DNA of 64,000 nt from Patescibacteria group bacterium (GTDB lineage: Bacteria; Patescibacteriota; Minisyncoccia; Minisyncoccales; UBA5738): NCBI GenBank assembly GCA_022710775.1, contig JAKLGH010000002.1:12707-76706 (forward strand), written 5' to 3'. Shown here piece after piece: positions 1,216-46,884 of the stretch. Numbering within the stretch: position 1 is the stretch's first letter; each line of letters opens with the position of its first letter. The notes under the pieces are model-generated. The model was given only the letters and a program-made list of their open reading frames with translations. It did no database searches and was not told where the DNA came from. Made by a program: the position numbers and the translations under genes.

Positions 1216-1501
1216 CTTTTTAACGGTTCATTAAAAATCATTATTTATATAGGGGTAGGAGGTGAAAGCATCAGAAAAAACCAGCTTCTTGTTTGGATGT
1301 TCGGAGGCCTTTGGATGGAGCGCAGGATGCGGGAGCTTGTTATTGGGACAGCTTTTTAGCTTCCCGCGGCCGGCTAAGCGCCAACCTATGTTGTTGCGCT
1401 ACCCAGCCTGGAATGTCCTCGCAGCCAACACTTATACGGGGTGTCTGATGAGATCTGCAATCGTCAAGCAAAAACTTGGCGGGCTATGGATGGCTTTCTA
1501 G

Positions 1502-1527
1502 AGCCTAAGCCTAAGCCTAAGCCTAAG
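1502..1527. repeat. Tandem hexamer repeat (AGCCTA)x4
   Basis: agcctaagcctaagcctaagcctaag read directly. It starts right after the stop of the doubtful ORF 1262..1501. Confidence 0.9.
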
Positions 1528-1543
1528 AAAGGTTGTGAGCTAT

Positions 1544-1572
1544 ATCCAGCCGTATCCCTTAAGGAGGTGATC
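1544..1572 (+). other. Segment with extended complementarity to the universal 16S rRNA 3' terminus
   Basis: ATCCAGCCG (1544-1552) and TTAAGGAGGTGATC (1559-1572) are complements of 16S CGGCUGGAU and GAUCACCUCCUUAA, in swapped order relative to the rRNA. Confidence 0.6.
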
Positions 1573-1850
1573 TGATCAAGGGAGCCTACGCCTTTCTGCG
1601 CCGCGCCGTTATGACGGGGATAGCGACAAAGCAATGCGTTATAACGAGCGGTTTGACCGGTAGTCCGCGTTCTTCAGCCAATGCGAGAAAGACGAGGATA
1701 AGCTCGGTTCTGCGGCCAAGGCTGTTATATGCCGGAACCGGTCCGCCCGGTTTTGAAAATTTTTGCTTTTTGGCCTAAGCGGCCGCCGGCCGCCCACGGC
1801 TTGTCCAGAAGATGGAATAATATCCGAGAGCGAAAAGGAGGTGAAAAACT

Positions 1851-2123
1851 ATGCTCGCAGTGCTGACATTAGCACTGGTCGCTTTCGCAATCCTGCTGGC
1901 AACGGCCATGAACACTAATGACGCTGGCGATGTGCCCGGCCGATCGTTCACGGAGCTGTATAGAATCTTTGCTTCGCCATTGCTGGTAATGCTTGCGATC
2001 GCGGCAGTGTGCTTGGCGCTTGGTCCCGGACCGCCCGCATCCATAGCTGGCTCCTCGGGAGTTTCTTGCACCAGCGTTTCTAGCGACAACGGCGCTTCTT
2101 CGAACTATGCCAGAGACCACTAA
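1851..2123 (+). CDS. Hypothetical small membrane protein (90 aa, two predicted TM segments)
   Basis: AGGAGGTGA lies 9 nt upstream of the ATG. Hydrophobic stretches are MLAVLTLALVAFAILLATA and LLVMLAIAAVCLAL. A terminator lies at 2205-2229. Confidence 0.45.
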   Translation: MLAVLTLALVAFAILLATAMNTNDAGDVPGRSFTELYRIFASPLLVMLAIAAVCLALGPGPPASIAGSSGVSCTSVSSDNGASSNYARDH

Positions 2124-2204
2124 CAGGCTGAAACTGTTCGCGCCAACGCCAATTGATCCAAAAGATTCTGAAGCAACCGAAAATCCAGCTGATACCAGTA
2201 TTTT

Positions 2205-2229
2205 AGGACGGAAAACCGTCCTTTTTTTT
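2205..2229 (+). terminator. Rho-independent terminator
   Basis: aggacgg-aaaa-ccgtcct followed by T8. Confidence 0.7.
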
Positions 2230-2255
2230 GACAAGCGGCGGTTTTTTAGTAGAAT
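2228..2255 (+). promoter_or_regulatory. Sigma70-like promoter (TTGACA-16 nt-TAGAAT)
   Basis: TTGACA at 2228-2233 overlaps the preceding T-run. TAGAAT lies at 2250-2255. Confidence 0.55.
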
Positions 2256-2833
2256 AGTTTTAGCAACTTAAAAAGGAGGTGAATACCGAACGCTATTATG
2301 GCTATAGCTATGGTCGTTGGCGCTTGAACTATTCCGCGAGTTTACCCCTCGTCCCGAACAGGGCTTGATCAAGCGGTTCCTTTATGGAACGGTAACTGCC
2401 AAGACTCCGCAAGGCTAGATGCTTTGCGTAAGCAGAGAGATAATACTTGGTTTTCATAGGAGGTGAAACAGAAGTAATGAAACATATTGCTTCCAGCAGC
2501 CGCACCATTACCGACGAGACGCCTTGAGCAGATTCCATTGTCTCTAAGAGGCAGGATGACATGGTGTTAACCTGGCTGTCCGAAAGGACGAAGCTCGATT
2601 GGGAATACCCATCTATTCCAGTTAGCGTTCTGGTTTTAAAAACGAAACACTGGAGGATATTCGGTTAATGAAGAAACTAGCCAGTTTCCCCGGCGGAGCC
2701 ATCTTATAGGCCAAAGTTGAGATGGCGATAATCCGTGGCACAGCTTAAAGAGATTTCGCCCTGCGCAGTTTTATTCCTGCCTTTCTGCCCAGGCATAAAA
2801 AGGCGGGAAGGGTCAAAGGAGGTCCCCCTGGTC

Positions 2834-2899
2834 ATGAGAAAAATGATAGCCGTACTGGTCATCATCGCGATGGCCGTAGTCGGGATGGCCGGCGCATAA
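2834..2899 (+). CDS. Candidate 21-aa hydrophobic micro-protein (MRKMIAVLVIIAMAVVGMAGA)
   Basis: AGGAGGT at 2817-2823 lies 11 nt upstream of the ATG. The peptide is a single TM-like stretch, and a strong terminator lies about 50 nt downstream. It is below the ORF-track length cutoff. Confidence 0.3.
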   Translation: MRKMIAVLVIIAMAVVGMAGA

Positions 2900-2947
2900 A
2901 TTGCTCACTCGCTTTATGAGGCTGTCTTTCACCGACACAAATTAAAC

Positions 2948-3046: not shown

Positions 3047-4207
3047 ATGGAGAACAAGAAACAACTGGGCCAGTTTTTTACCACAAATTCCGACCAGATA
3101 CTGGTTGGCCTAAATAAATACGTAAGAGGGAAGAAAGTGGCTGATCCGTTTGCCGGAAATAGTGATTTGTTAAAATGGGCAAAAAAAGAAGGCGCGAAGA
3201 GTGTCGAAGGTTTTGATATTGATAAAAAATTCGTCAACAATAAGGATGTTTTTTTTAACGACAGCCTTCTTTTCCCCAAAAAATATGAATTTGTGTTAAC
3301 CAATCCTCCATATTTAAATATAAATAAGGCTGATAAAACCACTAAAGAAAAATATTTTGCTAACGGCTTCGAAGATCTATATCAACTGGCTTTGATTTCA
3401 ATTATGGATAGCGATGAGGGGATTGTAATCGTTCCAATAAATTTTTTATCTGCTGAAAATTCAAAAAAAACCAGAAATGCCTTTTTTTCAAAGTTTGAAA
3501 TAGTGGAAATGAATTACTATAAAAACCAAGTATTTTCAGATACAACATACAATGTAATCGTTTTTTATTATAAAAAGAAAAAAGACGCATTTGATTGTTG
3601 CTTTAACATTAAAGCACATTTATATCCTGACAAAAAAAACATAAATATTAAATTGGAAAAAAAATACGGGTGGATGATTGGTGGTAGCTTTATTAATTGC
3701 ATTAAAAATCAAAAAAACGAATTAAAAATTTATCGTCTCCAAGAAAAAGACTTAATAAAAGGAAATCAAGAAATCAAAATGGCTTATAACCATATAAAAG
3801 AACAAAAAATTTATTCAGTAACCGATAAAAACATGGAGCTTGTTAGGGCAAACATAATTTTACTTAAAGCGATTGATAGTGGAAGCGAAAAAGGGAAAAT
3901 TGCCCTCGAGGACATTAGGGACTATAAATTAGATGGTTTAGTGAGTAAGCCAACTTCCAGACACATGGTGCAATTGATTTTTGAAAAGCAGATAACCATA
4001 AATGAGCAAAGAGAGATTATTAAAGTGTTCAACGATGAATTGGAAAATCTAAGAAAGAAATACAACTCTTTATTTTTAACAAATTATCGAGATAATGATC
4101 GAAAAAGAATTTCTTTTAACTTTACGTACAAATTAATCAATTATTTGTACGTGAACAAGCTTCACAATATATCGCAAGAAACGCAGGATGAGAAATTATT
4201 AGCTTAA
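3047..4207 (+). CDS. Type II N6-adenine DNA methyltransferase (gamma-class motif order)
   Basis: LGQFFTT (motif X), ADPFAGNSDL (motif I, AdoMet binding) and LTNPPYL (motif IV, NPPY). The region is visibly AT-rich compared with its flanks. Confidence 0.85.
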   Translation: MENKKQLGQFFTTNSDQILVGLNKYVRGKKVADPFAGNSDLLKWAKKEGAKSVEGFDIDKKFVNNKDVFFNDSLLFPKKYEFVLTNPPYLNINKADKTTKEKYFANGFEDLYQLALISIMDSDEGIVIVPINFLSAENSKKTRNAFFSKFEIVEMNYYKNQVFSDTTYNVIVFYYKKKKDAFDCCFNIKAHLYPDKKNINIKLEKKYGWMIGGSFINCIKNQKNELKIYRLQEKDLIKGNQEIKMAYNHIKEQKIYSVTDKNMELVRANIILLKAIDSGSEKGKIALEDIRDYKLDGLVSKPTSRHMVQLIFEKQITINEQREIIKVFNDELENLRKKYNSLFLTNYRDNDRKRISFNFTYKLINYLYVNKLHNISQETQDEKLLA

Positions 4208-4218
4208 TAGAATATATT

Positions 4219-5133
4219 ATGGATAATATTAAATTATTAGATTATTCAATATTAAACAAAGAGCAGGCTTTAGATCCCGCTTATATGTTTATTGAAAAGG
4301 ATAGAGATTTGCCTAAATACGTTGAAAAAACTAAAAAAATTAAAAATATTTTAATTGCTATTAAGGAGGTTTCCAATAAGAAAAGCTCGACCGAGGTTAT
4401 AGCTACTCTATTTGCAGATTTAAAAGAAAATTTGAAGGACTTTTCCCAATTCTCTGAGTTTAGTTGTTTCATTAACGCCTGCGATTCGAGCTTAAACTAT
4501 GCAACAATGAACGAGGAGCTATTAAAGAAAATTACCGCTTACTATTTGCAAAAAAGAGATTTAAATGAATTTGTACCTTCCGAATGGATACAAGCATTGA
4601 TAGACAAGACATCGTCTCGAAAAAAAGGGCAAGTTGGTGAAGTTAAGTTAATAAATATTCTAAAAAAAAGCGGATATTGTTATACGGAGAATTATTTAGA
4701 ATTTATTAAAGCTAAAAAATCTGTTGCTTGTTTTCGAAATGATTTTACTCTTAAGAATATAAAAAAGAATCTAAAAATTTCCATCGGTAAGGATACTCAA
4801 AGCAAAAAATTGGATTTATGCATAAAGAAGGGTAAAGAGATTTATTTCTTAGAAGCGAAACATGTAAACAATGAGGGCGGGGAACAAAACAAACAAGTAT
4901 TGGAACTGATTAAGATAATTCAAGAAAAAAATGCCAATAATCACTATCATTACGTAAGTTTTCTCGACGGATTATATTTCGATTTACTTTTTAAAAGTAT
5001 TATTTCAGTGCCAAAGAAAAAAAGTGGTGAAAATAAGTTACTAAAACAACAAAAAGACATTCGCAAAGCTTTAAAAAACAACAGGAACAACTATTTTGTT
5101 AATACTGCGGGTTTTAAAAAGCTTTTTGGCTGA
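4219..5133 (+). CDS. Putative cognate type II restriction endonuclease (PD-(D/E)xK-like)
   Basis: It lies 11 nt downstream of the methyltransferase and shares its AT-rich composition. A candidate catalytic motif is KLDLCIKKGKEIYFLEAKH (D...E-x-K). No other recognisable family. Confidence 0.55.
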   Translation: MDNIKLLDYSILNKEQALDPAYMFIEKDRDLPKYVEKTKKIKNILIAIKEVSNKKSSTEVIATLFADLKENLKDFSQFSEFSCFINACDSSLNYATMNEELLKKITAYYLQKRDLNEFVPSEWIQALIDKTSSRKKGQVGEVKLINILKKSGYCYTENYLEFIKAKKSVACFRNDFTLKNIKKNLKISIGKDTQSKKLDLCIKKGKEIYFLEAKHVNNEGGEQNKQVLELIKIIQEKNANNHYHYVSFLDGLYFDLLFKSIISVPKKKSGENKLLKQQKDIRKALKNNRNNYFVNTAGFKKLFG

Positions 5134-6065: not shown

Positions 6066-7010
6066 ATGAAGGTAACGGAACTGTACAACCTGGCGATAAA
6101 TAAGGGCATTGATGCCGATCTGCGCGGACGGCCAGCGGTGGAAAAAATGCTGGCGCGCCGGCGCCGTAATTACGAAAACTTGACCAACCAGGAAAAGGCG
6201 GATTTTGACGCGTCTGATTTAACCAATCCGTACGCGGACAGCCAGATCCTTTATATCAAAAACGATATTGAGGTTAAAAAGGTCCTGGTTGGAATCGACA
6301 TAGAACCGGCCGAGATTCTGATGGCGAAATTCCTCGGCGATATCGATCTTATTATTTCCCATCATCCGATCGGCAAGGGGTTGGCCAATTTGTCGGATGT
6401 TATGGAGCTTCAGGCGGAAGTCTTGAGCCTGTACGGGGTGCCGATTAATGTGGCTGAAGGATTGATGCGGGAGAAGATCTCCGAAGTGGCCCGCGGATTG
6501 AACGCAAAAAACCACCAGCGGACGGTTGACGCGGCCAGGCTGATGGGATTCAACCTGATCTGCTGCCACACGCCGTGCGATAATTTGGCTGCTAAATTCC
6601 TGAAGGAAAAAATAGAAGAAGCTGATCCCGAAAGGTTAGGCGATTTGCTTGATGTGTTTAACCGGATTCCGGAGTATAGGGAAGCGGCCAAGATCGGGGC
6701 TGGGCCGAAAATTTTTGTTGGCAATCCGGAGAGCCGTTGCGGAAAGATAATGCTTTCGGAGATCACTGGCGGTACCGAGGGCTCTTCCAAGCTTTATGCC
6801 AAGATGGCGATGGCCGGGATCGGGACTACGGTCGGGATGCATGTGTCCGAAGAACATAGAAAGGAAGCCGAAGCCGCGAATATCAACGTGCTGATCGCGG
6901 GGCATATGAGTTCCGATTCCCTGGGCGTTAATCTGTTTCTCGACGAATTGCAGAGACAAGGCGTTGAGATTATCGCATGTTCCGGCCTTACCAGAGTTAG
7001 CCGGGTTTAG
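6066..7010 (+). CDS. NIF3-family dinuclear-metal-centre protein (GTP cyclohydrolase 1 type 2 homolog family)
   Basis: Metal-ligand motifs typical of NIF3/YbgI: ISHHP, CCHTPCD and AGHMSSD. Confidence 0.8.
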   Translation: MKVTELYNLAINKGIDADLRGRPAVEKMLARRRRNYENLTNQEKADFDASDLTNPYADSQILYIKNDIEVKKVLVGIDIEPAEILMAKFLGDIDLIISHHPIGKGLANLSDVMELQAEVLSLYGVPINVAEGLMREKISEVARGLNAKNHQRTVDAARLMGFNLICCHTPCDNLAAKFLKEKIEEADPERLGDLLDVFNRIPEYREAAKIGAGPKIFVGNPESRCGKIMLSEITGGTEGSSKLYAKMAMAGIGTTVGMHVSEEHRKEAEAANINVLIAGHMSSDSLGVNLFLDELQRQGVEIIACSGLTRVSRV

Positions 7011-7220
7011 CGTTCCAGAGCCGAAGTTGAAATCGGTTTCTGACCTTGTTCCGTTTGATGCTGTTTGTTCTTGTGAAACGGGGCGGCAGGGATATGGTGT
7101 AAAAACAGTCAATGTTGGGAGCGGGACGGCTGGCCGAAAGGCCGTTTTTTGGTTAGAATGGATTTGACCAAATCCGCCTGCCGTTCAGATTATAGAGAAG
7201 CTGCGCATGGTTTACAAAAC

Positions 7221-8576
7221 ATGAAAAAAAGATTGTTTTTATTGTTTATATTGTTTATATTGTTGTCAACGCAATCCTTTCTTCTATATATATCGGGGTT
7301 TTTAGGCTATGACCGCACAATGGCTTTAGACTATGTTTCGCAGCCAGCTTTGATTCAAGAAGGCCAAACGCGTCTCAGAGATTATATTGATTTGCGGGAA
7401 GGTTTTTTATCCGAAAAGAGAGATTTTTTGGAAATCGATTCCACAGAGATGAAAGTTAGAATTTATTCTAAAGGAAAAACGGAAAATACTTTTTCAATCC
7501 TGTATAAAAAAGAAGGATTGCCTTCCGGTCTTTTTTCGGTCCAGTCAAAGAGAAAAACAGCTTTTTCGATGGATGGCGGAGTTTATCTGCCCTATACATT
7601 GAATTATTACGGTTCTTGCCAGATTCATGGGGAACCATATTCCGGATTGGGGCAAAAAACCGGCAGCGATAAGGATATGGAATGCCTGACTTTGAGCGAC
7701 CGGGACGCCAAGATTCTTTTTAACATGGCGGAGATCGGGATGCCCGTATTGGTGATAAATAAGAATGCCAGGCGTACCGAAGCGGTTAAATTAACGGTTG
7801 CGGATTTTCCAGACATTTCGGCAAAAAGTTTTTTAGTTGCCGATATTGATTCCGGCCAGATATTGGCAGAGAAAAATTCCGAAGTTCCGTTGCCGATCGC
7901 GTCGCTTACGAAATTAATGACGGCCGCGGTTGTGAAAGAGCAGGCAGATTTAAAAAGCGCGGTTTTGGTCAAAAACTGGATGTTGAGGCCTTACGGCGAA
8001 ACAAGAGGCCTCGCGGCCGGTTTCAGCTACCCGCTGGAACAGCTTTATTACCTCCTTTTGCAGGAATCATCCAATGACGCGGCCGAGGTATTGAGCAGCG
8101 CCGTGCCGGGTGGAAACGCGATTTACGCCATGAATCAAAGAGCCGGATCGATTCTGATGGAAAAGACTAGGTTTGTCGATGCGCATGGAATTGATGTTGG
8201 AAACCAGGCGACCGCCCGGGACTTGTTTTATCTGGCGAGATACGTCCAAGATTCCCATCCGGAAATATTCGAGATTACCAAAGGGATAAAGCCCGCCGGT
8301 TTTTCAACTTCGATTTTTCCTTACGCAAAAAATAGGAATTTATTTTTTAACAGCCAAAATTTTATCGGAGGGAAAACCGGATATATCATAGAATCAAAAT
8401 ATAATGGTTTGTTCCTGTTTGATTTTCCGATAGCCGAAGGGGAGAGCAGGAGAGTGGCGATTATCATTTTAGGAGCGCCGCATTGGCAGACAATGCAGGG
8501 AAATTTAAAAGGCGAAACGGAGAAAATCCTGGCTTGGCTTAGCAACAATTATTCCGTTAAAAATTCAGAAAGATAA
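7221..8576 (+). CDS. Fusion protein: YkuD-like L,D-transpeptidase domain plus S11 D-alanyl-D-alanine carboxypeptidase domain
   Basis: The likely start is the ATG at 7221 (MKKRLFLLFILF signal/TM); the ORF track starts at a TTG at 7149. The N-terminal half has QIHGEPYSG...ECLTLSDRD, resembling the YkuD HG...GC(I/V)R(M/L) motif. The C-terminal half has SLTK (SxxK), SSND (SxN) and KTG. Confidence 0.8.
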   Translation: MKKRLFLLFILFILLSTQSFLLYISGFLGYDRTMALDYVSQPALIQEGQTRLRDYIDLREGFLSEKRDFLEIDSTEMKVRIYSKGKTENTFSILYKKEGLPSGLFSVQSKRKTAFSMDGGVYLPYTLNYYGSCQIHGEPYSGLGQKTGSDKDMECLTLSDRDAKILFNMAEIGMPVLVINKNARRTEAVKLTVADFPDISAKSFLVADIDSGQILAEKNSEVPLPIASLTKLMTAAVVKEQADLKSAVLVKNWMLRPYGETRGLAAGFSYPLEQLYYLLLQESSNDAAEVLSSAVPGGNAIYAMNQRAGSILMEKTRFVDAHGIDVGNQATARDLFYLARYVQDSHPEIFEITKGIKPAGFSTSIFPYAKNRNLFFNSQNFIGGKTGYIIESKYNGLFLFDFPIAEGESRRVAIIILGAPHWQTMQGNLKGETEKILAWLSNNYSVKNSER

Positions 8577-8744
8577 AATTTAAAAAACGTTTAAAAGATG
8601 CCGGGTTTTATTTGGGCCGGTTGTTTTATGCGCTTCGGTTTTAATTCATGAATTTTTGGCTTGACTGTTTTGGCCAAGGCGGCCGCGATTTATGGCGTAA
8701 AACGGATTATAACTGAAGGAAAAAGCCATGGATGTCATTGAAAA

Positions 8745-8909
8745 GGAGCTAAGGCGTGGTTAAAATAACACAAAGGGAGTATTCGGAAGCGCTAAGAATG
8801 GTTAAGATCACAACCCAATCTACCCGCTTTTTTGCGGGAAGAAAGCCTACGGATTCATTTTTTTCCATGACTTGCCCGTGGTTTACAACATAAAGGTTAC
8901 AACATAATA
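8745..8909 (-). ncRNA. Copy C (inverted, 3' half decayed) of the multi-copy structured RNA-like element
   Basis: The reverse complement reads ttattatgttgtaaaccacgggcaagtcatggaaaaaaatgaatccgtaggctttcttcccgcaaaaaagcggg. This aligns with copy A, tttgtagaccacgggtaagccctgggaacaaaatgaaacttacggtttccttcccgcaaaaaagcggg. Confidence 0.4.
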
Positions 8910-8915
8910 AAAAAA

Positions 8916-10100
8916 ATGAGAAAATCTTACATTACGTCTGAATCAGTTACCGAGGGTCATCCGGACAAGATCGCTGACCAGATTGCCGATGCCATTCTTG
9001 ATGAAGTTATCCGCCAGGATAAGTACGGGCGCGTTGCCTGTGAGGTGATGGTTGGCAACAGCTATGCGATTATCGGCGGCGAGATATCGAGTTCAGCGTG
9101 GATCGATTTTAACAACTTGACGAGAAAAGTTATCCGCGATATTGGATACGACCAGGAAACCCACGGTTTTTGCTGCAAGAATGTGGCGATTATGAACGCG
9201 GTAAGCCGGCAGTCGCCCGATATAGCCAGGGGGATCAGGAAGGCCGGGTCGAGAAAACAAGGGGCGGGCGACCAGGGATTTTCGACCGGATACGCCGTTA
9301 CCGAAACTCCGGAATTGATGCCATTGACGATATTAATGGCTCATAAATTGGCTTTCCGCCTTGCCGAAGCCAGAAAAAAGAAGATCATTCCTTATTTGCG
9401 GCCGGACGGTAAAAGCCAGCTGACCTTGGAATACCACGACGGAATACCCGCAAGGCTGGAAAACGTAGTAATTGCGGCTCAACACGATCCAAATACACCG
9501 GTCCAAAAAATAAAAAAAGACATAATCGAAAAAGTAATCAAACCGGTTTGCGGAAAATATTTGGATCATAATACCCGATTTTTCGTGAACAATACGGGCC
9601 GGTTTGTGATTGGCGGCCCCGCCTCCGATACCGGCGCGACCGGACGGAAGATCATTGTTGATTCTTACGGAGGAACTGTGCCGGTCGGGGGCGGCAGTTT
9701 TTCGGGAAAAGATCCGACGAAAGTTGACAGGTCGGGAGCCTATATGGCTCGTTATATAGCAAAAAATATTGTAGCGTCGGGTTTGGCCGACGAGTGTTTT
9801 GTGCGCCTTGCCTATGTTATCGGCGGAACGAAGCCGACCGAATTAAGCATTGAAACTTTTGGAACGGCGAAGATCGACGAGGAAAGGATCGAAAGAATAA
9901 TTCCGAAGGTTTTCGATCTGTCGCCGGGGGGAATTATCAAACAATTGAATCTTTTGAGGCCGATTTACCGGAAAACCAGCTGTTATGGCCATTTTGGCCA
10001 CGAAGAGGCGGAATTTACCTGGGAAAGAAAAGACAAAGCCAAAGAGATCTTGAAAGCCGTTGAGCAAAAAACTGCCAAGGGAAAAACGGCAAAAATGTGA
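8916..10100 (+). CDS. metK: S-adenosylmethionine synthetase
   Basis: [30 protein letters not shown] and a [20 protein letters not shown] motif ([16 protein letters not shown]). Confidence 0.97.
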
Positions 10101-10221
10101 AAAATTATTCTTCCAAAAAAGCGTCGAAAGGCAAATTGGCTTATAGAACGCCAAGCCGTTTTATATATCAAAAATATCTTAAAGCCAGCGGGATGGCTAA
10201 AAAAAGAAAAAGAACAAAGAT

Positions 10222-11100
10222 ATGAGCGAAGCTATAAAAACGGAGCAGGCCAGGGCGGAAGGAAAACCATTGCTGATTTTAGCTATAAGCGCCGCTTTTT
10301 TTGCGATTTTGATGGCTGCCGGGATAATTTCGGTTAGCCATTTGGCCGGTACGGCCAGCGTTAAAGGCCTTGGAACGGCGAAAGTAAATGTGCAAAACTT
10401 CGTAGCCATTTTTATTTTGGCTACTTTAGGGCTTCTCCTTTTAATCTATTTTTTGAAAGTAAAAAAAATAAAAAGAGCGATATTTAAGATAATGTTTTTT
10501 TTGGCCGTTTTTGCCGGAACAGCGGTTTTTTTTAATGTTTGGGTAAGCCGGGCCATTGCTTTTCTGGCCGGGGTTTTCACGGCGGCAGTTTGGTGGGCGT
10601 ATCCAAAAATAGTGAGCCAAAACGCATGTCTTGCTTTTACGATGCTGGGGGCAGGAATTTTTCTTGGATATGTTTTCTTCCCCGGTTCCGCCGCGTTTCT
10701 TCTCCTGCTTTTTTCTTTTTACGACCTTATTGCCGTTTATGTTACCAAGCATATGGTCGCAATGGCTAAAGAAATGGTAGCTAACGGGGCTTTGCCCGCG
10801 GTTTTTATACCGATGAATTTATCGGGTTTGAGAGAGGATATCAACCGTATAGCGGCCGGAGGGGAAAAATTTCTGATTCTTGGCGGCGGAGACATTGTTT
10901 TTCCGCTATTTTTTTGCGTATCGGTGGCCAGGAATTATGGGACTTCTGCCGCCGCGCTTACGGCAGTTTTTTCCACTATTGGGTTTTGCGCCAGTTTCTA
11001 CCAATTTCTCAATCAAGGGACGCGCCGTCCGATACCGGCTTTGCCTCCGATAGCTTTATTTACATTAATAGGATACTCATTGGTTGTTTTTTTAAAATAG
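10222..11100 (+). CDS. Presenilin / signal-peptide-peptidase family intramembrane aspartyl protease (A22, GxGD type)
   Basis: A polytopic membrane protein with the three hallmark motifs in order: FSFYDLIAV (YD), ILGGGDIVFP (GxGD) and PIPALPPI (PAL). Its length of 292 aa is similar to the archaeal PSH. Confidence 0.75.
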   Translation: MSEAIKTEQARAEGKPLLILAISAAFFAILMAAGIISVSHLAGTASVKGLGTAKVNVQNFVAIFILATLGLLLLIYFLKVKKIKRAIFKIMFFLAVFAGTAVFFNVWVSRAIAFLAGVFTAAVWWAYPKIVSQNACLAFTMLGAGIFLGYVFFPGSAAFLLLLFSFYDLIAVYVTKHMVAMAKEMVANGALPAVFIPMNLSGLREDINRIAAGGEKFLILGGGDIVFPLFFCVSVARNYGTSAAALTAVFSTIGFCASFYQFLNQGTRRPIPALPPIALFTLIGYSLVVFLK

Positions 11101-11242
11101 ACAATAGATTATTTGCCCAAAGCGCTCTTCGATGACGCTTCCTCTGGCCGTCCGCTTTGTTACGCTTTGCGCCGGGAGAAACAGCATTCGGAAAATAAAT
11201 TGATAATTTAATAATTTCCGGTCGTTATCAGCGAAGAAACAT

Positions 11243-11833
11243 ATGAGAAAAATTAAACCGTGGTTATTTTTAGCTGTCTGCCTATTAATTGGAGTGTTTT
11301 TTGCCTTGCCGGCGATAGCTTCAGGCTTGGTTCCCTGCGGCGGCTCCCAGCAGGAAGACTGTACGGTCTGCCATTTTTTCAAGATGACCAAAGAGATTCT
11401 TTATTATTCCTTGTCTCTGACCTTTTTAATTTCTTCGTTGATTTTCATTCTTTGCGGCCTTTATTTGATGGCGAACCGCGGCAATGTCCGGGTTGTTGCC
11501 AAAGTAAGGCAAGTTATGGGGGTAACGGTTGTTGGGTTGGTCATTGTTTTTTCCGGTTGGGTTGCCGTAAATACCTATTTTGTTTCAGCTGGAGCCGCGG
11601 AATGGGATGGATACAGCTTAAACAAAGATTGGTGGAAGATCAACGCAAAGTGCGAGAAGAACGACAGCGATCTTATTTTTTGCGGCGATGGCGATGTCCA
11701 ACCGGAAAACAATGAAGATTGCGATCCTAATGAAACAATTACCGATTGCCAGAAAAGGACTGGCAACACTGTGGACGAATGCGATCAGCTGATTTCCAAT
11801 TGCGATACGGAGAAGTGTATTGCCGTACCCTAA
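11243..11833 (+). CDS. T4SS-pilin-like (TrbC/VirB2-like, LVPCG family) protein with C-terminal Cys-rich repeat tail
   Basis: A signal peptide is followed by SGLVPCGGSQQEDCTVCHFF and two TM helices. The C-terminus carries CGDGDVQPENNEDCD-type repeats (Myxococcus cysteine-rich repeat style). Confidence 0.75.
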   Translation: MRKIKPWLFLAVCLLIGVFFALPAIASGLVPCGGSQQEDCTVCHFFKMTKEILYYSLSLTFLISSLIFILCGLYLMANRGNVRVVAKVRQVMGVTVVGLVIVFSGWVAVNTYFVSAGAAEWDGYSLNKDWWKINAKCEKNDSDLIFCGDGDVQPENNEDCDPNETITDCQKRTGNTVDECDQLISNCDTEKCIAVP

Positions 11834-11923
11834 AATGGCGGCAACGTAAAAAACGGTTACAAATCTTTAGAAACCTTTAATGTATTATTTTTCCGATCCC
11901 TTCAAGCTAATTAATCGGGAGAA

Positions 11924-12481
11924 ATGAATAAAACAAGCCGGATGGAAAAACTTAATAGGGAAATCGGCCTATGCGTAAAATGCCGCTTATCGATTACAAG
12001 AATTAAACCTGTTCCGGGCGAGGGACCGCTTGATGCTGATTATTTTATAATCGGCCAGGGGCCGGGCGCCAATGAGGATGAAACCGGCCGGCCGTTCATC
12101 GGGCGGTCCGGAAAACTGCTCACCGAATTGTTGGCGCTGGCTGGTATCGACCGCTCCAAAGAAACCTTTATCACGTCAATCGTAAAATGCCTGCCGACGC
12201 CGCCTCTTAACCGGAAGCCCAGACCCGATGAGATCGCGGCTTGCTGCGATTATTTGGCGCGCCAAATAGAGCTGGTCGGCTCTAAGAAAATTATTCTACT
12301 GGGAGATGTGGCGTTCAGAAGGTTCTTCCCTAAAGATAAATTTTCCGACTGGCGCGGAAAATGGCGAGACAGCGGGGGAAGGAAGTATTTTATCAGCTAC
12401 CACCCGGCCGCCGGAATCCGTTTTCAGAAGTTTAAAAAGATATTGGAAGCCGATTATAAGGCAATCAATAAACTTGATTAA
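11924..12481 (+). CDS. Uracil-DNA glycosylase, family 4
   Basis: CVKCRL...PGEGPLDADYFIIGQGPGANEDETGRPFIGRSGKLL matches the family-4 UDG motifs (GEGP, GxxPGxxED, PFxGxxG). Confidence 0.85.
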   Translation: MNKTSRMEKLNREIGLCVKCRLSITRIKPVPGEGPLDADYFIIGQGPGANEDETGRPFIGRSGKLLTELLALAGIDRSKETFITSIVKCLPTPPLNRKPRPDEIAACCDYLARQIELVGSKKIILLGDVAFRRFFPKDKFSDWRGKWRDSGGRKYFISYHPAAGIRFQKFKKILEADYKAINKLD

Positions 12482-12591
12482 AGATTGGGCAAATGTTTTA
12501 ATTCGACTAGCGGCGGTTTTGAATGAAATTAGATTATATTGTTGTAGGGCGCTAAGCTAACGATCTTAGCCTCTTTTTTAATGAATTTAAA

Positions 12592-12984
12592 ATGGAAATA
12601 GAAAAATTTGAAAAACTTGTAGCCGAGGCGATCAACAGCTTGCCCGAACATATCTTAAAAGCCGTTAACAACACCGCGATCGTCATCGAGGAAAAATCGC
12701 CCCGGCGGTCATTGCTCGGTTTATATGAAGGAATTCCGGAAAACGAGTGGGGCAAGGGGATGGGAATGAACTTGCCCGACAAGATCACTATTTTCAAAAA
12801 CACGATCGAAAGATTGGCGTCATCTCCGGCGGAGTTGAAAGAAGCGGTTAAAATCGTGGTTTGGCACGAGATTGCCCACCACTTTGGTTTTGACGAAGAG
12901 GAGGTGGATAAGCTGGAGAAGAAATGGCGCAAAAAACTAAAAAACCAAAAACCGAATAACGCAAAAAAAGCGCGGCCTTTTTAA
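12592..12984 (+). CDS. Zincin-like metallopeptidase family protein (DUF1025-like)
   Basis: A C-terminal HEIAHHFG metal-binding motif in a protein of about 130 aa. Confidence 0.7.
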   Translation: MEIEKFEKLVAEAINSLPEHILKAVNNTAIVIEEKSPRRSLLGLYEGIPENEWGKGMGMNLPDKITIFKNTIERLASSPAELKEAVKIVVWHEIAHHFGFDEEEVDKLEKKWRKKLKNQKPNNAKKARPF

Positions 12985-12992
12985 GATATGGT

Positions 12993-13020
12993 TTGATATT
13001 TTTTTAAAAAATATTATTAT
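12993..13020 (+). promoter_or_regulatory. Candidate promoter of RNA element copy A (TTGATA-16-TATTAT)
   Basis: TTGATA at 12993-12998 and TATTAT at 13015-13020. The ATTATTTTGT block is conserved in copy B, and as TATTATGTTGT in copy C. Confidence 0.4.
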
Positions 13021-13212
13021 TTTGTAGACCACGGGTAAGCCCTGGGAACAAAATGAAACTTACGGTTTCCTTCCCGCAAAAAAGCGGGAAGAAAGGAGGA
13101 GGACTTAGGTACTCCGCCCCGCATCCTGCGGGGGAGGAAGCATCCTCTGGTTGACAGGCGTGGTTTTATACCACGCCGGGCGAAACTCAAAAGGAAGAAT
13201 ACATAATTGATA
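13021..13212 (+). ncRNA. Copy A of the multi-copy structured RNA-like element (unclassified)
   Basis: A 28-nt block (gaccacgggtaagccctgggaacaaaat) is identical to copy B. Shared hairpins are GGAGG-aagcat-CCTCT and GCGTGG-ttttata-CCACGC, followed by CGGGCGAA. The shared 3' end is ggaagaatacataattgat. Confidence 0.5.
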
Positions 13213-13247
13213 TTGAGAGCGACATCTTAATTTTGGAGAGTTAAGCG

Positions 13248-13550
13248 ATGGATAAAGCAGAGGTAATTGAGGTAAAGAAAGTCGTTTTGGAGCCCGGCGA
13301 GTACGAAGTTATAAAGATCCTTGTTAAGGAATTCGCGTCCGGAGGCGAAGATTCCGGCCTTTTGCGAGAAGAAATAAAAGAACAGCTGAAAGATCTGATC
13401 CCGCTGGTTGCTCTCGCCGATTTAGCCTTAATTGAGAAGGAAATCGGTTTGCCTCCCGGCACGCTCGCGATAATCAGCGCAATGGCGGTCCAAAAGGCTT
13501 TAGAAGAAGCTAGCGGAAGCATTACCGTTTTTACGGTAAATAAAGAATAA
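13248..13550 (+). CDS. Hypothetical acidic protein (100 aa)
   Basis: An ORF with the SD-like GGAGAG 7 nt upstream. No recognisable motif. Confidence 0.55.
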   Translation: MDKAEVIEVKKVVLEPGEYEVIKILVKEFASGGEDSGLLREEIKEQLKDLIPLVALADLALIEKEIGLPPGTLAIISAMAVQKALEEASGSITVFTVNKE

Positions 13551-13584
13551 CGGGGAAAAACCTCGTTTTTTAATGGTTTTTCAA

Positions 13585-15204
13585 TCAGAGCTTTTTTATC
13601 ATATACGTTTCTTTTAAGGCATAGCCGGATTTTCGCCAGTAGGCGCGGGCGCCGACGCCCGAAATGGCCGCGATATTTTTGAAACCAAATTCTTTTTTTA
13701 CGATCTTTTCCGCTTCAAGAATCAATTTTTTCCCCAAACCTTGATGCTGGACCGCCACCAGGCGAGTCTCGCCATTATGGCGGACTGCCGACGCTTTTTC
13801 GGCCACGGCAAGCTGGAAGCCGTAAGTGTGGATTTCTCTTATCAGCGCGGCGTTTTTTAGCGCCGGAATTACCAATTCCGGATTTTGGCTCACGCGCAGG
13901 CGCAGCAGGCTGAAGATTTTGGTTTGATCTTTGTTTTCAAAGCTTAAAAAAATTTCCTGGCCGCCTGACGCGGAATACGTTCGGCGAACCGGAAAAACTT
14001 TTTCATTTGGATCGTAACCGCCTTTTACCTCCCGGCAGCGGATGCACTGGCATTGCCAATTTTCCTTTGCCATATCCGCGGCGATGATCTGGCGCAGGTT
14101 GGAAACGGTCTTGGCGCCCTCGGTAATCCGGGGGGAGGGAATGTCGCGGATGATCCGTTCGATCCTGACATAAGGAGGAATAATTTTTTTTATTTCCTTG
14201 ATAACCTCCGTGAGCTTTTTGTCCGAATATGGTTTGAATGATCCTTGTTTGTAAATTTTATAAAGCGGTGCTTCAGGCAAGACGGCGCAAGGATAAATCT
14301 TGAGCGTGTCGGGCTGGAACCGTTCGTCGTTAAAAAGCGTTTTGACCATATTTAGGTCTTTCTGGGGCGAGGAGCCGTAAAGGTTAAGCATTATCTGGTA
14401 GGCGATTTTGAATCCGGCATTTTTCAAAAGATGGGTCGCTTTGACCGTAGAATCAACTTTATGGCCTCTTTGGTTTAAATCAAGTACATCGTTGTAAATG
14501 CTTTGAATGCCGAGCTCCACTTTGGTTATGCCCAAGTTTCTTAAGCTGATTATTTCTTTTGCGTCAATAAAGTCCGGCCGGGTTTCGACCGACAGCCCGA
14601 TGATCCGGCATTTGGCCGATTCGTTTATTTTTTGCTCCTGTTTTAGCGAACCGATTCTTTTTGGATTTTTAGATCCGTAATTATTACAGGCAAAAAAACA
14701 TTTTTTAACGAACGATTCCCGGTACGCTTTTTTATAGAAACTCCAGGTGCCGCCGATGATCCGCATTTCTATCTTGTCCACCGGATGGCCTTCTTCGGCC
14801 AGCATGCCGAGTCGTCCGGCGACCTGCTTTACCGGATCAAAATTCAAACGCTTGGCCCGTTCCGCCGCCGGTTCGCCCGAAAGATAGCTTTTTGGAAAAC
14901 CGGTTTCCTGGGGGCAATAAAGGCATGATCCGGGGCAGGGATAGGGCTTGGTAAGCACGGAAACATTGATGATGCCCGAAAGCGACCTAACGGGCCTTAC
15001 CCGTAATAAATTTCGGAGTTCTTGGCGGGAAGATTTTATTTTTCCGCCATCGAAGTCGTTTAATGCCGAAAGCAGATCGATGTTGCTTGGGTAGGGAATT
15101 TTAAATTCCGCGCAAATTTTTCGCTTAAACGCGTCCAGTTCCGCTTTTGTTCTCGGATCGGCCTGGACGAGTTTTTTGGCGATTGTTTCTTGGTCTTTCA
15201 TCAT
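13585..15204 (-). CDS. elp3: Elp3-like radical-SAM/GNAT tRNA uridine(34) modification enzyme
   Basis: A radical-SAM Cys cluster (PCPGSCLYCP) in a protein of about 540 aa, with a C-terminal GNAT region (QHQGLGKKLILEAEKI). Confidence 0.85.
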   Translation of the reverse strand: MMKDQETIAKKLVQADPRTKAELDAFKRKICAEFKIPYPSNIDLLSALNDFDGGKIKSSRQELRNLLRVRPVRSLSGIINVSVLTKPYPCPGSCLYCPQETGFPKSYLSGEPAAERAKRLNFDPVKQVAGRLGMLAEEGHPVDKIEMRIIGGTWSFYKKAYRESFVKKCFFACNNYGSKNPKRIGSLKQEQKINESAKCRIIGLSVETRPDFIDAKEIISLRNLGITKVELGIQSIYNDVLDLNQRGHKVDSTVKATHLLKNAGFKIAYQIMLNLYGSSPQKDLNMVKTLFNDERFQPDTLKIYPCAVLPEAPLYKIYKQGSFKPYSDKKLTEVIKEIKKIIPPYVRIERIIRDIPSPRITEGAKTVSNLRQIIAADMAKENWQCQCIRCREVKGGYDPNEKVFPVRRTYSASGGQEIFLSFENKDQTKIFSLLRLRVSQNPELVIPALKNAALIREIHTYGFQLAVAEKASAVRHNGETRLVAVQHQGLGKKLILEAEKIVKKEFGFKNIAAISGVGARAYWRKSGYALKETYMIKKL

Positions 15205-20530: not shown

Positions 20531-21895
20531 ATGTTCTCAAAAAAAAGATCATTTGCCCTATTATTTTTGACAGCAACCCTTTTTTTATCAGGTTTTGCTG
20601 TTGTCGCGGCTGCCGGCGATCCGCTTGTTCCCTGCGGCGGTCCCGGCCAGCATGCTTGCACCATCTGCGATTTTTTTGAAATGACCCGGCGGGTCTCTAA
20701 TTATATTATTTTTTGGATTATACCGGTTTTGACCGCTTTTTTTCTGTTGATCGGAGGCGGTTACCTTATCTGGTCCAAAGGCGATCCCGCCGCGCTTGTA
20801 AGCTCTAAAAACGTCATTAAAGTAACGATAATCGGTTTCATAGTTATTTTTATAGGCTGGGTTTTCGTCAATACGATGTTTATGGTTCTGGGCATTGCCG
20901 AATGGGACGGTTTTAAACTTAACGAAAGCTGGTGGAAGGTGAGCGCCAAATGTTCTCATCATGAGGAATCAATCGAAGAGTGCGGCGACGGAATATGGCA
21001 GATCGGCGAAGGATGCGATCCGAACATGACTGTTCTGACCTGCCAGGGCCATGGCGGTTATTCGGTGGAAACTTGCAATGAAATAATCGATAATTGCGAT
21101 CCCGATACTTGCAAGTCCGAATATTGCGGAAACGGAGAAGTGGAGAGCGGCGAGGAATGCGATTATAACGAACCGCTCTGGCGATGCAAAAAAAGAAAGC
21201 CGTCTTGGACGGATAAAAAATGCCAGGACACGATTAACAATTGCAACGATGATTGCAAAATAATTGCCGAGGCGATCTGCGAAGCCGAAGATAAATCAAA
21301 AATCGGAAAGGGTTGCTGGCTGACAAACGATCCTTCCGACCGGGAAAAATACTGCCAAAGAGGAAAATACGTCTGCGAAGACGATCCAAGCTCTTCGAAT
21401 TTCAATAAAGTCGTTTGCAAGGGGATCAGCCCGAAAATCTACGACGAATGCTGTTTAAACGGCGGAGATAACCTTGATGATAAATCTTTTGACATAGTGA
21501 GGATCCGCGACTATGTAAAATTAGGGGTAGGCGGGGGATTGTTCGATATGAATCAGATGGTACCCTGCGAGAGCGCCTCGATCGACTGCGACACTATCTG
21601 TAAAGATAAAGGGAAAGTGTGCGTCGGCGTTGGACTGGCGAACTGGCAGAAGAATAAGTGCATTTACGTGATCCATCACGATTTCAACAATTGCAACTTG
21701 AGCCAGAATCTTGCCTCAAACGACTGCCGTTCAAAATATTGCATTACCAGTTACATTTGCTGCGAAGGCGGCGATAACTGCGATAGCAAGCTTGAGCCTT
21801 GCTGCAAAGGCACGATGACCGACCCGGCTTACGGGCCTTTTACCGGCAAAGGCGCGATGTTTAGCGTTGGAGAAACAGCTTGTTATTGCGAGTAA
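20531..21895 (+). CDS. T4SS-pilin-like (LVPCG family) protein with long Cys-rich C-terminal region; paralog of 11243..11833
   Basis: AGDPLVPCGGPGQHACTICDFF is followed by two TM helices and AEWDGFKLNESWWK, collinear with the 11243 protein. CGDG/CGNGEVESGEECD repeats follow, in an extension of about 300 aa containing many Cys. Confidence 0.75.
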   Translation: MFSKKRSFALLFLTATLFLSGFAVVAAAGDPLVPCGGPGQHACTICDFFEMTRRVSNYIIFWIIPVLTAFFLLIGGGYLIWSKGDPAALVSSKNVIKVTIIGFIVIFIGWVFVNTMFMVLGIAEWDGFKLNESWWKVSAKCSHHEESIEECGDGIWQIGEGCDPNMTVLTCQGHGGYSVETCNEIIDNCDPDTCKSEYCGNGEVESGEECDYNEPLWRCKKRKPSWTDKKCQDTINNCNDDCKIIAEAICEAEDKSKIGKGCWLTNDPSDREKYCQRGKYVCEDDPSSSNFNKVVCKGISPKIYDECCLNGGDNLDDKSFDIVRIRDYVKLGVGGGLFDMNQMVPCESASIDCDTICKDKGKVCVGVGLANWQKNKCIYVIHHDFNNCNLSQNLASNDCRSKYCITSYICCEGGDNCDSKLEPCCKGTMTDPAYGPFTGKGAMFSVGETACYCE

Positions 21896-21913: not shown

Positions 21914-23020
21914 GTGCTATCAAAAAATATGGAAGAAGAAAATTTTATCGAAGAGCTGGATAAAAAGAGGAGGATTTTCTATTACGGCGGAATCGCGGCG
22001 GTGGTTTTTTCCTTTTTGATCTTGTATATTTTTGTTATTGCCGATATGCTCGGCGGCAGATCTGGCTTGGATGAAGAGAAGCCCGGAAACGGCCAAGTTT
22101 CAGAGGTGGGCGAGGGGCAGGAGGACGGAATATATCACGTGGAAGTAAAAACAAAAGATGATTGCCTGGATATGGATGATAAAAATGAGAGCCGAAAATG
22201 TCTTGATAATATTGCTCTGGACAGCGCTATAGACGATAACCTTTTTTCAAAGTGTAACGATATCGGAAATGAAAGCCTTCGAAACGACTGTATGCACCAG
22301 GTTGCCCATAACCAGGAAAGCATAGCCCTCTGCTTAAAAATTTCCGATGAAGCGATCAAAAAGACATGCGTTAGCGATGTGGCGATATCGTTGAAGGATC
22401 CGAGCGTTTGCAGCGCCGCTTTCCGTGAATCTTTCGAATTGAAAGAATGCCGCGATGTCGCGACAGCCTTTACGATAGCTTACAGCGGAAAAAAAGACGA
22501 TATCGGAGAATGTGCCGCAATCGAGACCAAAGAATATTCCAATTTGTGTTTTTTGAATTCTTACGTTTCCAAATATGGCGGCGATTGCGAAAAGATTCCC
22601 TCGGCTTATCGGCAGTATTGTATTGATTATAAGGCGATGGAAGCGGCCGAAAATCCGGAAGATTGCGATGTTGTTAAAGATTCCAACTATAAGGAATATT
22701 GTTTGAAGGTGGCGGAGGTGGGAGCTATCGAGGCGCGTTACTTTGATACCGACGGCGACGGAATTACGGATGGTAACGAGCTGTTTATGAAAACCGATCC
22801 CAAGAAAGTTGATACCGACGGCGACGGGATTAATGACGGCGCCGAATGGATTATTCTTGGAATCGATCCCGGTAATCCGGATACCGACGGCGACGGTTTA
22901 AACGATTCCCAGGAAATGCAGGATTACCGTACAAATCCCAAGAATCCGGATACCGACGGCGACGGAAGAAACGACGGTTTAGAGGTAAAAATGAAGAGGA
23001 ACCCATTGACCAAAGACTGA
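21914..23020 (+). CDS. Membrane-anchored protein with Cys-containing repeats and four thrombospondin-type-3-like Ca-binding repeats
   Basis: An N-terminal TM segment (YYGGIAAVVFSFLILYIFVI). The C-terminus has 4x DTDGDG(I/L/R)(T/N)D motifs. The start is uncertain (GTG at 21914 or ATG at 21929). Confidence 0.65.
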   Translation: MLSKNMEEENFIEELDKKRRIFYYGGIAAVVFSFLILYIFVIADMLGGRSGLDEEKPGNGQVSEVGEGQEDGIYHVEVKTKDDCLDMDDKNESRKCLDNIALDSAIDDNLFSKCNDIGNESLRNDCMHQVAHNQESIALCLKISDEAIKKTCVSDVAISLKDPSVCSAAFRESFELKECRDVATAFTIAYSGKKDDIGECAAIETKEYSNLCFLNSYVSKYGGDCEKIPSAYRQYCIDYKAMEAAENPEDCDVVKDSNYKEYCLKVAEVGAIEARYFDTDGDGITDGNELFMKTDPKKVDTDGDGINDGAEWIILGIDPGNPDTDGDGLNDSQEMQDYRTNPKNPDTDGDGRNDGLEVKMKRNPLTKD

Positions 23021-44284: not shown

Positions 44285-44737
44285 TCATTTTGGCGGCGTC
44301 GGTAGCTCTGTTTTATCTTCGTCGTCCTTTTCTTCCTTTATCTCATTCTCCGGCCTTGCCGGCTTTTTGATTAGCGTTTCCGGTTCTTTATCCGGAAAAA
44401 GCCGGTAAATTACCACGACCGCTATAATGATCGAGATAGTGGCGACAAAGGCTACGCAAGCTATCACGCTGATCAGAGTTCCAAATTGCATCGTTATCAG
44501 CAGGGCGGAAATAATGAGGATGAATAACCCTGCTGCCATAAAGCTGACGGAAATAAATATCCCCAAAATTTTTGTCGTGCCCGAAGATCGATGCGTTCCG
44601 GCGGCGAAAATCATACTGATAAGCGCCGCACTTCCGCCTGCCAACGCCATATAGGCGATGATATCCGGATTCATGGAATTCACCAAGCTCTTTGTAAACG
44701 ATAATTTAAAATTTGTCAACAATCTGTAATTCTTCAA
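44285..44737 (-). CDS. Hypothetical multi-pass membrane protein with acidic/Lys-rich C-terminal tail
   Basis: Three or four hydrophobic segments. An alternative start is the ATG at 44674 (MNPDII...). Confidence 0.55.
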   Translation of the reverse strand: MKNYRLLTNFKLSFTKSLVNSMNPDIIAYMALAGGSAALISMIFAAGTHRSSGTTKILGIFISVSFMAAGLFILIISALLITMQFGTLISVIACVAFVATISIIIAVVVIYRLFPDKEPETLIKKPARPENEIKEEKDDEDKTELPTPPK

Positions 44738-44876
44738 TAGCTTGTAGCCACCTGCTAAAAGAGGAAATTCATGATTTTTTTAGACAAAACAAAGGATTAC
44801 GAATAGAGTCCCGCTTCGGGCGGGGTCGACGTAACCCCGCGGAATGCGGGGTTAAGCGAAGCGGCGGGGGATGTCT

Positions 44877-44895
44877 GTGCCCTGTAGAAGAATTT
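44877..44895. repeat. Left inverted repeat flanking the GIY-YIG cassette
   Basis: The reverse complement of gtgccctgtagaagaattt is aaattcttctacagggcac. This matches 45268-45286 (aaattcttctacggggtgc) at the first 12 of 12 positions and at 16 of 19 overall. Confidence 0.65.
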
Positions 44896-44899
44896 AGAT

Positions 44900-45163
44900 T
44901 TAACCCTTCTTGGCCCGTAAATAGTCCTTTAGTCGCAGCTTTAACAATCTTTTACCTTGCGGCGTTTTTAGATATTGCTCTCGTTTGATCGCGTCAGTTT
45001 CGGTAATGCAGGCTTCGTAGTAAATTATTTGCCATGGGCGATACGGCTTAGTCGAAGGGTTAAAGCCATTATTATGTTCTTTTAATCTTTTTTGTAGGTC
45101 ATTAGTATAGCCAATATATAGATTGTCATTTTTTAAGCTTTGCAAAACGTAGTTGTAGAACAT
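44900..45163 (-). CDS. GIY-YIG nuclease family protein (UPF0213-like, 87 aa)
   Basis: YNYVLQSLKNDNLYIGYTNDLQKRLKEHN gives the GIY...YIG core, with the downstream R and E of the fold. Confidence 0.85.
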   Translation of the reverse strand: MFYNYVLQSLKNDNLYIGYTNDLQKRLKEHNNGFNPSTKPYRPWQIIYYEACITETDAIKREQYLKTPQGKRLLKLRLKDYLRAKKG

Positions 45164-45267
45164 AATAACGATCTAATTTCTCTACAGGGTTCACCCCGTA
45201 GAGAATTTTAAGCGCTTTTCCATGAAAAGCGTAACAAAAAACTTGTATCTCAACAAGCTTTTTGCTT

Positions 45268-45286
45268 AAAATTCTTCTACGGGGTG
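45268..45286. repeat. Right inverted repeat flanking the GIY-YIG cassette
   Basis: See 44877..44895. A related hairpin, aatttctctacaggg/ccccgtagagaattt, lies at 45174-45207 just upstream of the GIY-YIG start. Confidence 0.65.
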
Positions 45287-45299
45287 CCGAAGGTGGGAT
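45285..45299 (-). repeat. 15-nt duplicate of the tRNA-Leu 3' end (acceptor plus T-stem)
   Basis: gtgccgaaggtggga at 45284-45298 is identical to 45385-45399, the 3' end of tRNA-Leu. The two copies are direct repeats 101 bp apart. Confidence 0.7.
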
Positions 45300-45385
45300 G
45301 GTTCTCAGGTTCACCATTCCCATCGGCGAAGCGCTGATTTTTTTACCAAAACGTATTTGTATTGAGCGAGTGGTGCGAATCTAAG

Positions 45386-45469
45386 TGCCGAAGGTGGGAG
45401 TTGAACCCACACGAGGTTGCCCTCATAGCATTTTGAGTGCTACGTGTATGCCAGTTTCACCACTTCGGC
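45386..45469 (-). tRNA. tRNA-Leu (anticodon CAA), type II with long variable arm
   Basis: The reverse complement folds with acceptor GCCGAAG/CTTCGGC. The anticodon arm is TAGCA-CTCAAAA-TGCTA, the variable arm is GAGG-gcaa-CCTC, and the T-arm is GTGGG-TTCAACT-CCCAC. Confidence 0.95.
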
Positions 45470-45639
45470 GTATCTTGAACGGAAAAATGATTTAGGTCTC
45501 ATAGTGCCCGTCGAACCACCACTTTGGCATGTCTTTCGCGGACGGTAAACAGTATCTATTATCTATTTTTTTGGCGGTTTGTCAATCAAAATTATTTCTT
45601 CCAAGGCCGTTTTTCGCCGCAAATCCGGTGGGTCGTAAT

Positions 45640-45664: not shown

Positions 45665-45669
45665 CTAGG

Positions 45670-46859: not shown

Positions 46860-46884
46860 AGGCCTTGTTTTTTTAGCGGAGGAG

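Follow-up and report, generated by a model that had tools for sequence, protein, structure and literature searches.

Does a presenilin-type intramembrane protease encoded directly upstream of a pilin-like protein act on that neighbour, or do the two genes merely lie side by side? The question is raised by a stretch of 64,000 nucleotides (the window) from a Patescibacteria group bacterium (contig JAKLGH010000002.1), in which the two genes lie on the same strand, separated by a short spacer (Table 1). A preliminary description saw in them a dedicated protease-substrate pair, in which the protease replaces a prepilin peptidase in the maturation of the pilin-like protein and perhaps also matures the proteins encoded at positions 56539, 57149 and 57830. 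A real pairing would have meant that a presenilin homologue from a prokaryote had, for the first time, a known physiological substrate. The function of archaeal PSH is listed as 'Unknown', and the natural substrates of PSH-type enzymes are not known (PMC9263693). We put at roughly three in four the probability of another reading: the protease is a stand-alone PSH-like enzyme, its neighbour is matured through Sec and signal peptidase I (SPase I), and their adjacency is inherited synteny.

Table 1. Positions in the window of the protease, the pilin-like gene, their neighbours and the second pilin-like gene with its own partner.
Feature	Positions	Strand	Length	Remarks
NIF3/DUF34 protein	6066-7010	+		Pfam
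S11 D-Ala-D-Ala carboxypeptidase	7149-8576	+		Pfam
MetK (S-adenosylmethionine synthetase)	8916-10100	+		Pfam; upstream member of the syntenic block
Protease ORF	10222-11100	+	292 aa	
Y167-D168 codons	10720-10725	+		Predicted first catalytic Asp, TM6 'YD'; invariant; aligned to PSH YD
G221-G222-G223-D224 codons	10882-10893	+		GxGD, predicted second catalytic Asp, start of TM7; invariant; aligned to PSH GMGD
P272-A273-L274-P275 codons	11035-11046	+		PAL motif before TM9; invariant in the alignment
Intergenic spacer, protease to pilin-like gene	11101-11242		142 nt	
Pilin-like ORF	11243-11833	+	196 aa	
Uracil-DNA glycosylase (UDG) family protein	11924-12481	+		Pfam; downstream edge of the variable slot
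Zincin-like protein	12592-12984	+		Pfam
ELP3-like radical-SAM enzyme	13585-15204	opposite		Pfam
Paralogue of the pilin-like protein	20531-21895	+	454 aa	phmmer E 4e-50; PF18895 16.9 bits
TSP3-repeat protein after the paralogue	21914-23020			TSP3_bac 1.6e-20

The upstream gene had been read as encoding a presenilin/PSH-type protein with YD, GGGD and PAL motifs, an assignment on which Pfam, the alignment to PSH, motif invariance, the structural model and Foldseek now agree. The protein matches the Pfam model PF06550 ('SPP'; 'Signal-peptide peptidase, presenilin aspartyl protease') over residues 53-288 with 44.9 bits (E 1.4e-11), above the gathering score of 23.9 bits, and some of its close homologues also match PF04258 (Peptidase_A22B). 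Its score against the NCBIfam model of archaeal PSH (NF041679) is 60.6 bits, under the equivalog cut-off of 125; by its sequence, it is classed as a member of the presenilin/SPP family but not as an equivalog of archaeal PSH. A phmmer search of PDB sequences gave a sole match, the PSH of Methanoculleus (4HYC/4HYG/4Y6K; E 3e-6, protease residues 17-286). The alignment sets FSFYDLIAVYVTKHM opposite LAVYDAISVYRTKHM and ILGGGDIVFP opposite VMGMGDLIMP, with the motifs in register, and both catalytic Asp (D168 and D224) are present rather than lost.

The AlphaFold2 model of the protease, built on a 23-sequence homologue alignment, has nine long helices (pLDDT 85, pTM 0.84). Y167-D168 lies inside helix 154-175, D224 of the GGGD motif is at the start of helix 223-239, and PALP directly precedes helix 274-291, with both catalytic Asp falling within predicted TM helices. 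When the PDB was searched with Foldseek, the best 19 matches were all SPPL2a, PSH or presenilin-1 (probability 1.00, TM-scores 0.55-0.67), and the ranks below these were noise. That the ORF encodes an inactive pseudo-protease or scaffold is hard to credit: nothing specific speaks for it beyond the missed equivalog cut-off of NF041679, whereas YD, GGGD and PALP are invariant in all 23 aligned homologues (36-93% identity) and the confident model has the full presenilin fold. We rejected it, since all motifs are invariant. Judged by sequence and predicted structure together, the protein is a genuine PSH-like GxGD intramembrane aspartyl protease (MEROPS A22).

The loops of the protease carry 15 Lys and Arg residues inside (the N-terminal side) and 5 outside, and its predicted topology is therefore N-in/C-out, as in presenilin and PSH and unlike SPP. 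This orientation is one of several likenesses to archaeal PSH (MCMJR1 of Methanoculleus marisnigri; 4HYG, 4Y6K), along with the full-length alignment, the nine-TM fold (Foldseek probability 1.0), a length of ~290-300 aa and the lack of extra domains; the differences are the CPR bacterial host, an identity of ~20% and GGGD instead of GMGD. Archaeal PSH is active without cofactors. The window protease also has the catalytic motifs and fold of SPP, SPPL2a and presenilin-1 (TM-scores 0.56-0.67), at an identity of ~15-18%, but it differs from presenilin-1 and SPPL in being without the partners nicastrin, APH-1 and PEN-2 and without a PA domain, and the orientation of SPP and SPPL is opposite to the one predicted here.

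Orientation bears on the substrates that can be expected: presenilins cut type I (N-out) helices, whereas SPPs, which are oriented the other way round, cleave type II helices, e.g., signal peptides (PMC2947513). One alternative is that the protease is the CPR counterpart of eukaryotic SPP and clears the remnants of Sec signal peptides generally after SPase I, the signal peptide of the pilin-like neighbour being merely one among many substrates. The name of the best Pfam model (SPP), the closest fold match (SPPL2a), the housekeeping neighbourhood of the gene and its wide conservation in reduced genomes all point this way. Yet the predicted N-in/C-out topology is opposite to that of SPP, and by the polarity rule (PMC2947513) an enzyme in the presenilin orientation is disfavoured for the removal or clearing of N-in signal peptides, so we hold this alternative to be unlikely.

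The idea that the protease takes the place of a prepilin peptidase drew on the GxGD motif common to both enzyme classes. Prepilin peptidases process type IV pilins. The enzymes of this kind (PilD, FlaK, PibD; MEROPS A24) are likewise membrane proteases that use two Asp and carry a GxGD-like motif, and to this extent the analogy stands and favours a pair. It is otherwise loose, as both the mechanism and the type of pilin differ: in A24 enzymes, the Asp lie in soluble loops and cleavage takes place on the cytoplasmic side, outside the membrane (PMC2947513), whereas predicted TM helices enclose both Asp of the window protease, and the neighbour resembles T4SS pilins rather than type IV pilins. 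The protease itself was ruled out as a prepilin peptidase, having no match to PF01478 (A24) at E <= 1 and both its Asp within helices. The remark that no prepilin peptidase is visible in the window agrees with our scan, in which none matched among the 28 Pfam-scanned proteins (of ~77 ORFs), although 64 kb are in any event a poor guide to the genome at large.

The pilin-like gene lies just downstream of the protease, and the signal sequence, LVPCG motif and two hydrophobic helices ascribed to its product are all present. The Sec signal peptide occupies residues 1-26 (n-region MRKIK, a hydrophobic core and c-region P-A-I-A), with predicted cleavage at A24-I25-A26|S27 (AIA|SG). GLVPCGG follows at residues 28-34, within a GLVPCGG..C..C segment that spans 28-43. 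The AlphaFold2 helices (6-20, 42-77 and 82-115) concur with the hydropathy segments, and the last two, long and hydrophobic, form a predicted TM hairpin. The protein also has a conserved AEWDG..WWK..KC segment and a Cys-rich CGDG/DUF4215-like tail, both of which are additions to the signal peptide and two-helix hydrophobic hairpin that it has in common with PF18895 and PF04956 pilins.

The proposed relation of this protein to T4SS pilins is borne out by its homologues but not by its own scores, which are below the cut-offs of both PF18895 (T4SS_pilin; 12.2 versus 26.6 bits) and PF04956 (TrbC/VirB2; 13.2 versus 27.9 bits). A word-indexed search with its N-terminus gave one protein, and an exhaustive profile search was used instead: a profile made from the protein and its paralogue in the window found 5799 cluster representatives out of 1.84 billion proteins, and 808 of these reached E <= 1e-10. 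Among sampled homologues, 49 of 54 match PF18895 (best E 7e-13) and 23 of 54 match TrbC. Structure adds little, because a hairpin of two helices is too simple a fold to discriminate (VirB2 was found at E 0.94 in a profile search of the PDB with the hairpin; Foldseek gave no match at E <= 0.001 for the model, with VirB2 8exh third at E 2.9), and membership of PF18895 thus rests on transitive sequence evidence. This evidence supports, through the homologues, the classification of the neighbour as a divergent member of a large CPR LVPCG family that overlaps T4SS_pilin and TrbC/VirB2. Of the T4SS machinery, VirB4, VirB6 and VirD4 were sought among the Pfam-scanned genes at 6066-15204, and none was found.

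Signal peptidase I is the enzyme that matures T4SS pilins of the VirB2/TrbC type. Across the pilin-like family, SPase I-type A-x-A c-regions stand just before LVPC, with n- and h-regions upstream; Ala is found upstream of LVPC at -3 in 20 of 48 members and at -2 in 19 of 48. A standard SPase I site therefore explains the N-terminal maturation of the pilin-like protein, which argues against the protease as its maturase. The presenilin orientation argues in the same direction, as its polarity does not suit N-in signal peptides.

If the two genes formed a functional module, they would be expected to be neighbours in other genomes as well. The distant set comprised 80 protease loci of other species (protease identity 31-44%) with flanks up to ±6 kb, 806 kb in total, and in none of the 80 does a pilin-like gene adjoin the protease. 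A motif scan found xVPC near the N-terminus in 2 of the 1030 ORFs of these loci, and phmmer with both pilin-like paralogues of the window gave no significant match in them. With the family HMM, a single pilin-like ORF was found in the 806 kb, ~2.9 kb from the protease and on the opposite strand. What recurs beside the protease is instead a set of cytosolic housekeeping genes: NIF3 (42 of the 80 loci), ELP3-like radical SAM (39), methyltransferase (32), Mur ligase (26), DUF763 (25) and RtcB (24).

In the close relatives of the window, the whole block is syntenic, with a variable slot that separates protease and UDG. The conserved order is NIF3, D-Ala-D-Ala carboxypeptidase, MetK, protease, the slot, UDG and zincin, with MetK at the equivalent position in loci L081, L082, L086, L090, L091 and L094, and UDG in the same loci except L090. 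Protease and pilin-like gene occur together at 93% protease identity (L081), at 74% (L090, in which the pilin-like gene runs off the contig end) and at 62% (L086-89, with a pilin-like version of 529 aa). The protease stands alone at 67% identity (L082-85), with a gap of 62 nt to UDG, and at 45% (L091), where the slot has an unrelated 54-aa ORF. The converse is seen in L094, which is organised as S11, DUF763, MetK, a 549-aa pilin-like gene (51% identical) and UDG: the slot is filled by the pilin-like orthologue, and the protease was not detectable by tblastn. In an NJ tree, the 67% lineage is nested within the pilin-positive clade, which implies that the pilin-like gene was lost there and the protease kept. 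The existence of slots with the protease only and with the pilin-like gene only shows that the two genes are gained or lost independently.

The pilin-like family can also be followed away from the protease. In the window, the second pilin-like paralogue lies 9 kb off and is paired with a TSP3-repeat protein, which speaks against a dedicated protease partner. Close pilin-like homologues are found in L092 and L093 with no protease nearby. The pair of pilin-like paralogue and TSP3-repeat protein also occurs in L093.

Where the two genes are paired, they are on the same strand; the distance from one to the other is 38-142 nt, and no terminator can be recognised. A scan of positions 9900-12100 of the window found no promoter- or terminator-like consensus site in the 11101-11242 spacer; the number of such sites in the scanned region equals the shuffled expectation, and all of them are outside the spacer. 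The scan says nothing either way on co-transcription of the two genes, because the spacer has neither kind of site. Rfam at the gathering threshold gave nothing near the locus. Its only matches in the whole window are two tRNAs. The region from 6066 to 15204 also contains a 100-aa ORF without a Pfam match.

These observations weigh heavily against a dedicated pair. In its favour are the same-strand adjacency, seen in the window and again in relatives whose protease is 93%, 74% and 62% identical, and the spacer without a terminator-like site; against it are the missing adjacency in all distant loci, the loss of the pilin-like gene from a nested lineage that retained the protease, and the slot that holds the pilin-like gene without the protease. 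With the SPase I site accounting for N-terminal maturation and the neighbourhood not conserved, the proposal that the protease matures the pilin-like protein did not hold, and we regard it as very improbable. The adjacency is the inherited synteny of one narrow clade, not a functional module.

Under the favoured reading of a stand-alone protease of a CPR bacterium (Patescibacteria/Parcubacteria-type) beside an SPase I-matured neighbour, the Asp pair on TM6 and TM7 would hydrolyse peptide bonds inside TM helices, as in archaeal PSH. By the same analogy, its substrates would preferably be N-out single-pass segments with short ectodomains, and its role that of a general housekeeping or regulatory membrane protease rather than of an enzyme devoted to pilin maturation. 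The pilin-like protein would be exported by Sec, with signal peptidase I then cleaving it at AIA|SG. Its gene occupies a slot whose content varies, within a housekeeping block that is conserved in other respects.

Against this account stands the persistence of the pairing in four of the lineages sampled, the most distant of which has 62% protease identity. Because it persists, with both genes on the same strand, short spacers and no terminator, co-transcription or a lineage-specific interaction between the two products is conceivable. Such an interaction could take the form of cleavage, in one CPR lineage, of the N-out TM1 of the SPase-matured LVPCG pilin-like protein, with the release or turnover of its Cys-rich surface domain as the outcome; the signal peptide would not be the target. 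After SPase I cleavage, TM1 would be N-out with an ectodomain of ~25 residues, formally acceptable to an enzyme in the presenilin orientation. What supports TM1 as a target is proximity alone, and we give this version only a slim chance. If true, it would be the first natural substrate of any prokaryotic presenilin homologue.

The protease had also been called rare in bacteria. This may hold for bacteria as a whole, among which the family is perhaps unusual, but not for the CPR: with each GTDB species represented by one genome, relatives were found in at least 481 genomes, and all 80 retained protease loci are from CPR MAGs. A database search gave 507 protease clusters at E <= 1e-3, the named examples of which are all Patescibacteria, Nealsonbacteria or Paceibacterales. 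Several relatives carry the NCBI/JGI names 'presenilin family intramembrane aspartyl protease' or 'presenilin-like A22 family membrane protease', and among the full-text papers searched, none couples presenilin with CPR or Patescibacteria. The protease is thus a common and already annotated component of the CPR radiation, and the locus brings together two ordinary, already catalogued CPR families that are incidental neighbours in one clade. More widely, there is a slim chance that the large CPR clade of presenilin homologues fills the role of clearing signal peptides or TM stubs in these reduced genomes. The homologues are in any case a potential supply of many small bacterial orthologues for biochemistry.

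The slot-resident pilin-like gene, which lies between the protease and UDG genes, has a longer LVPCG-type paralogue elsewhere in the window, and the gene directly downstream of this paralogue encodes a bacterial TSP3-repeat protein. The same two-gene pair is present in L093, an unrelated metagenome contig, and so the paralogue and the TSP3-repeat protein may form a conserved module, in contrast to the pairing of the protease with the pilin-like gene. The slot-resident gene itself also occurs in long forms of ~530-550 aa in the close-relative loci L094 and L086. These carry, after Cys-rich CGDG repeats, a conserved C-terminal domain of ~250 residues for which Pfam gave no match, and the window version (196 aa) ends after the first CGDG repeat.

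Features of the window and of related loci (window positions unless a locus is named)
Feature	Location	Strand	Remark
Stretch with short ORFs only	1262-2900		~1.6 kb
Putative restriction-modification pair	3047-4207; 4219-5133	+	386 aa; 304 aa
LVPCG pilin-like paralogue	20531-21895	+	454 aa
TSP3-repeat protein	21914-23020	+	PF18884, E 1.6e-20
Small ORF run	about 44285-47495	-	164-167 aa
tRNA-Leu(caa)	45385-45469
Tandem single-pass protein genes	56539-57102; 57149-57787; 57830-59068	+
Paralogue/TSP3 pair	L093 5001-6521; 6536-7540
Long slot-resident forms	L094 4154-5803; L086 6991-8580

The N-termini of the three tandem single-pass proteins (NQSG|ISTLAVV, NQEG|LSPAFVL and NQKG|VSPVFAL) resemble class III signal peptides, the kind carried by type IV pilins, with the usual Glu at +5 missing. 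None of the scanned window proteins was recognised as a cognate peptidase. Weak PsbP_2-like domains occur in two of the three (E 4e-4 and 1e-6), and one gives a weak match to the archaeal Pilin_N (E 0.0076).

Two adjacent genes look like a restriction-modification pair: part of the downstream protein resembles the DpnII endonuclease (E 2.8e-5), and the upstream one starts with a methyltransferase-like GQFFT motif, its counterpart in the close-relative locus L081 having a weak Eco57I match. The genes of the window are nearly all on the plus strand except for a run of small ORFs beside the tRNA-Leu(caa) gene, across which GC and AT skew are reversed; these ORFs have no Pfam match, and the run may be an integrated element. 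In the stretch at 1262-2900 (GC roughly 50%), all ORFs are short and implausible, and Rfam at the gathering threshold returned no match.

Across the 80 more distant protease loci, the genes recurrently flanking the CPR presenilin homologue encode an ELP3-like radical SAM enzyme, RtcB, DUF763 and NIF3, the first three being typically archaeal in character. These archaeal-type neighbours could bear on the route by which the protease entered the CPR bacterial radiation.
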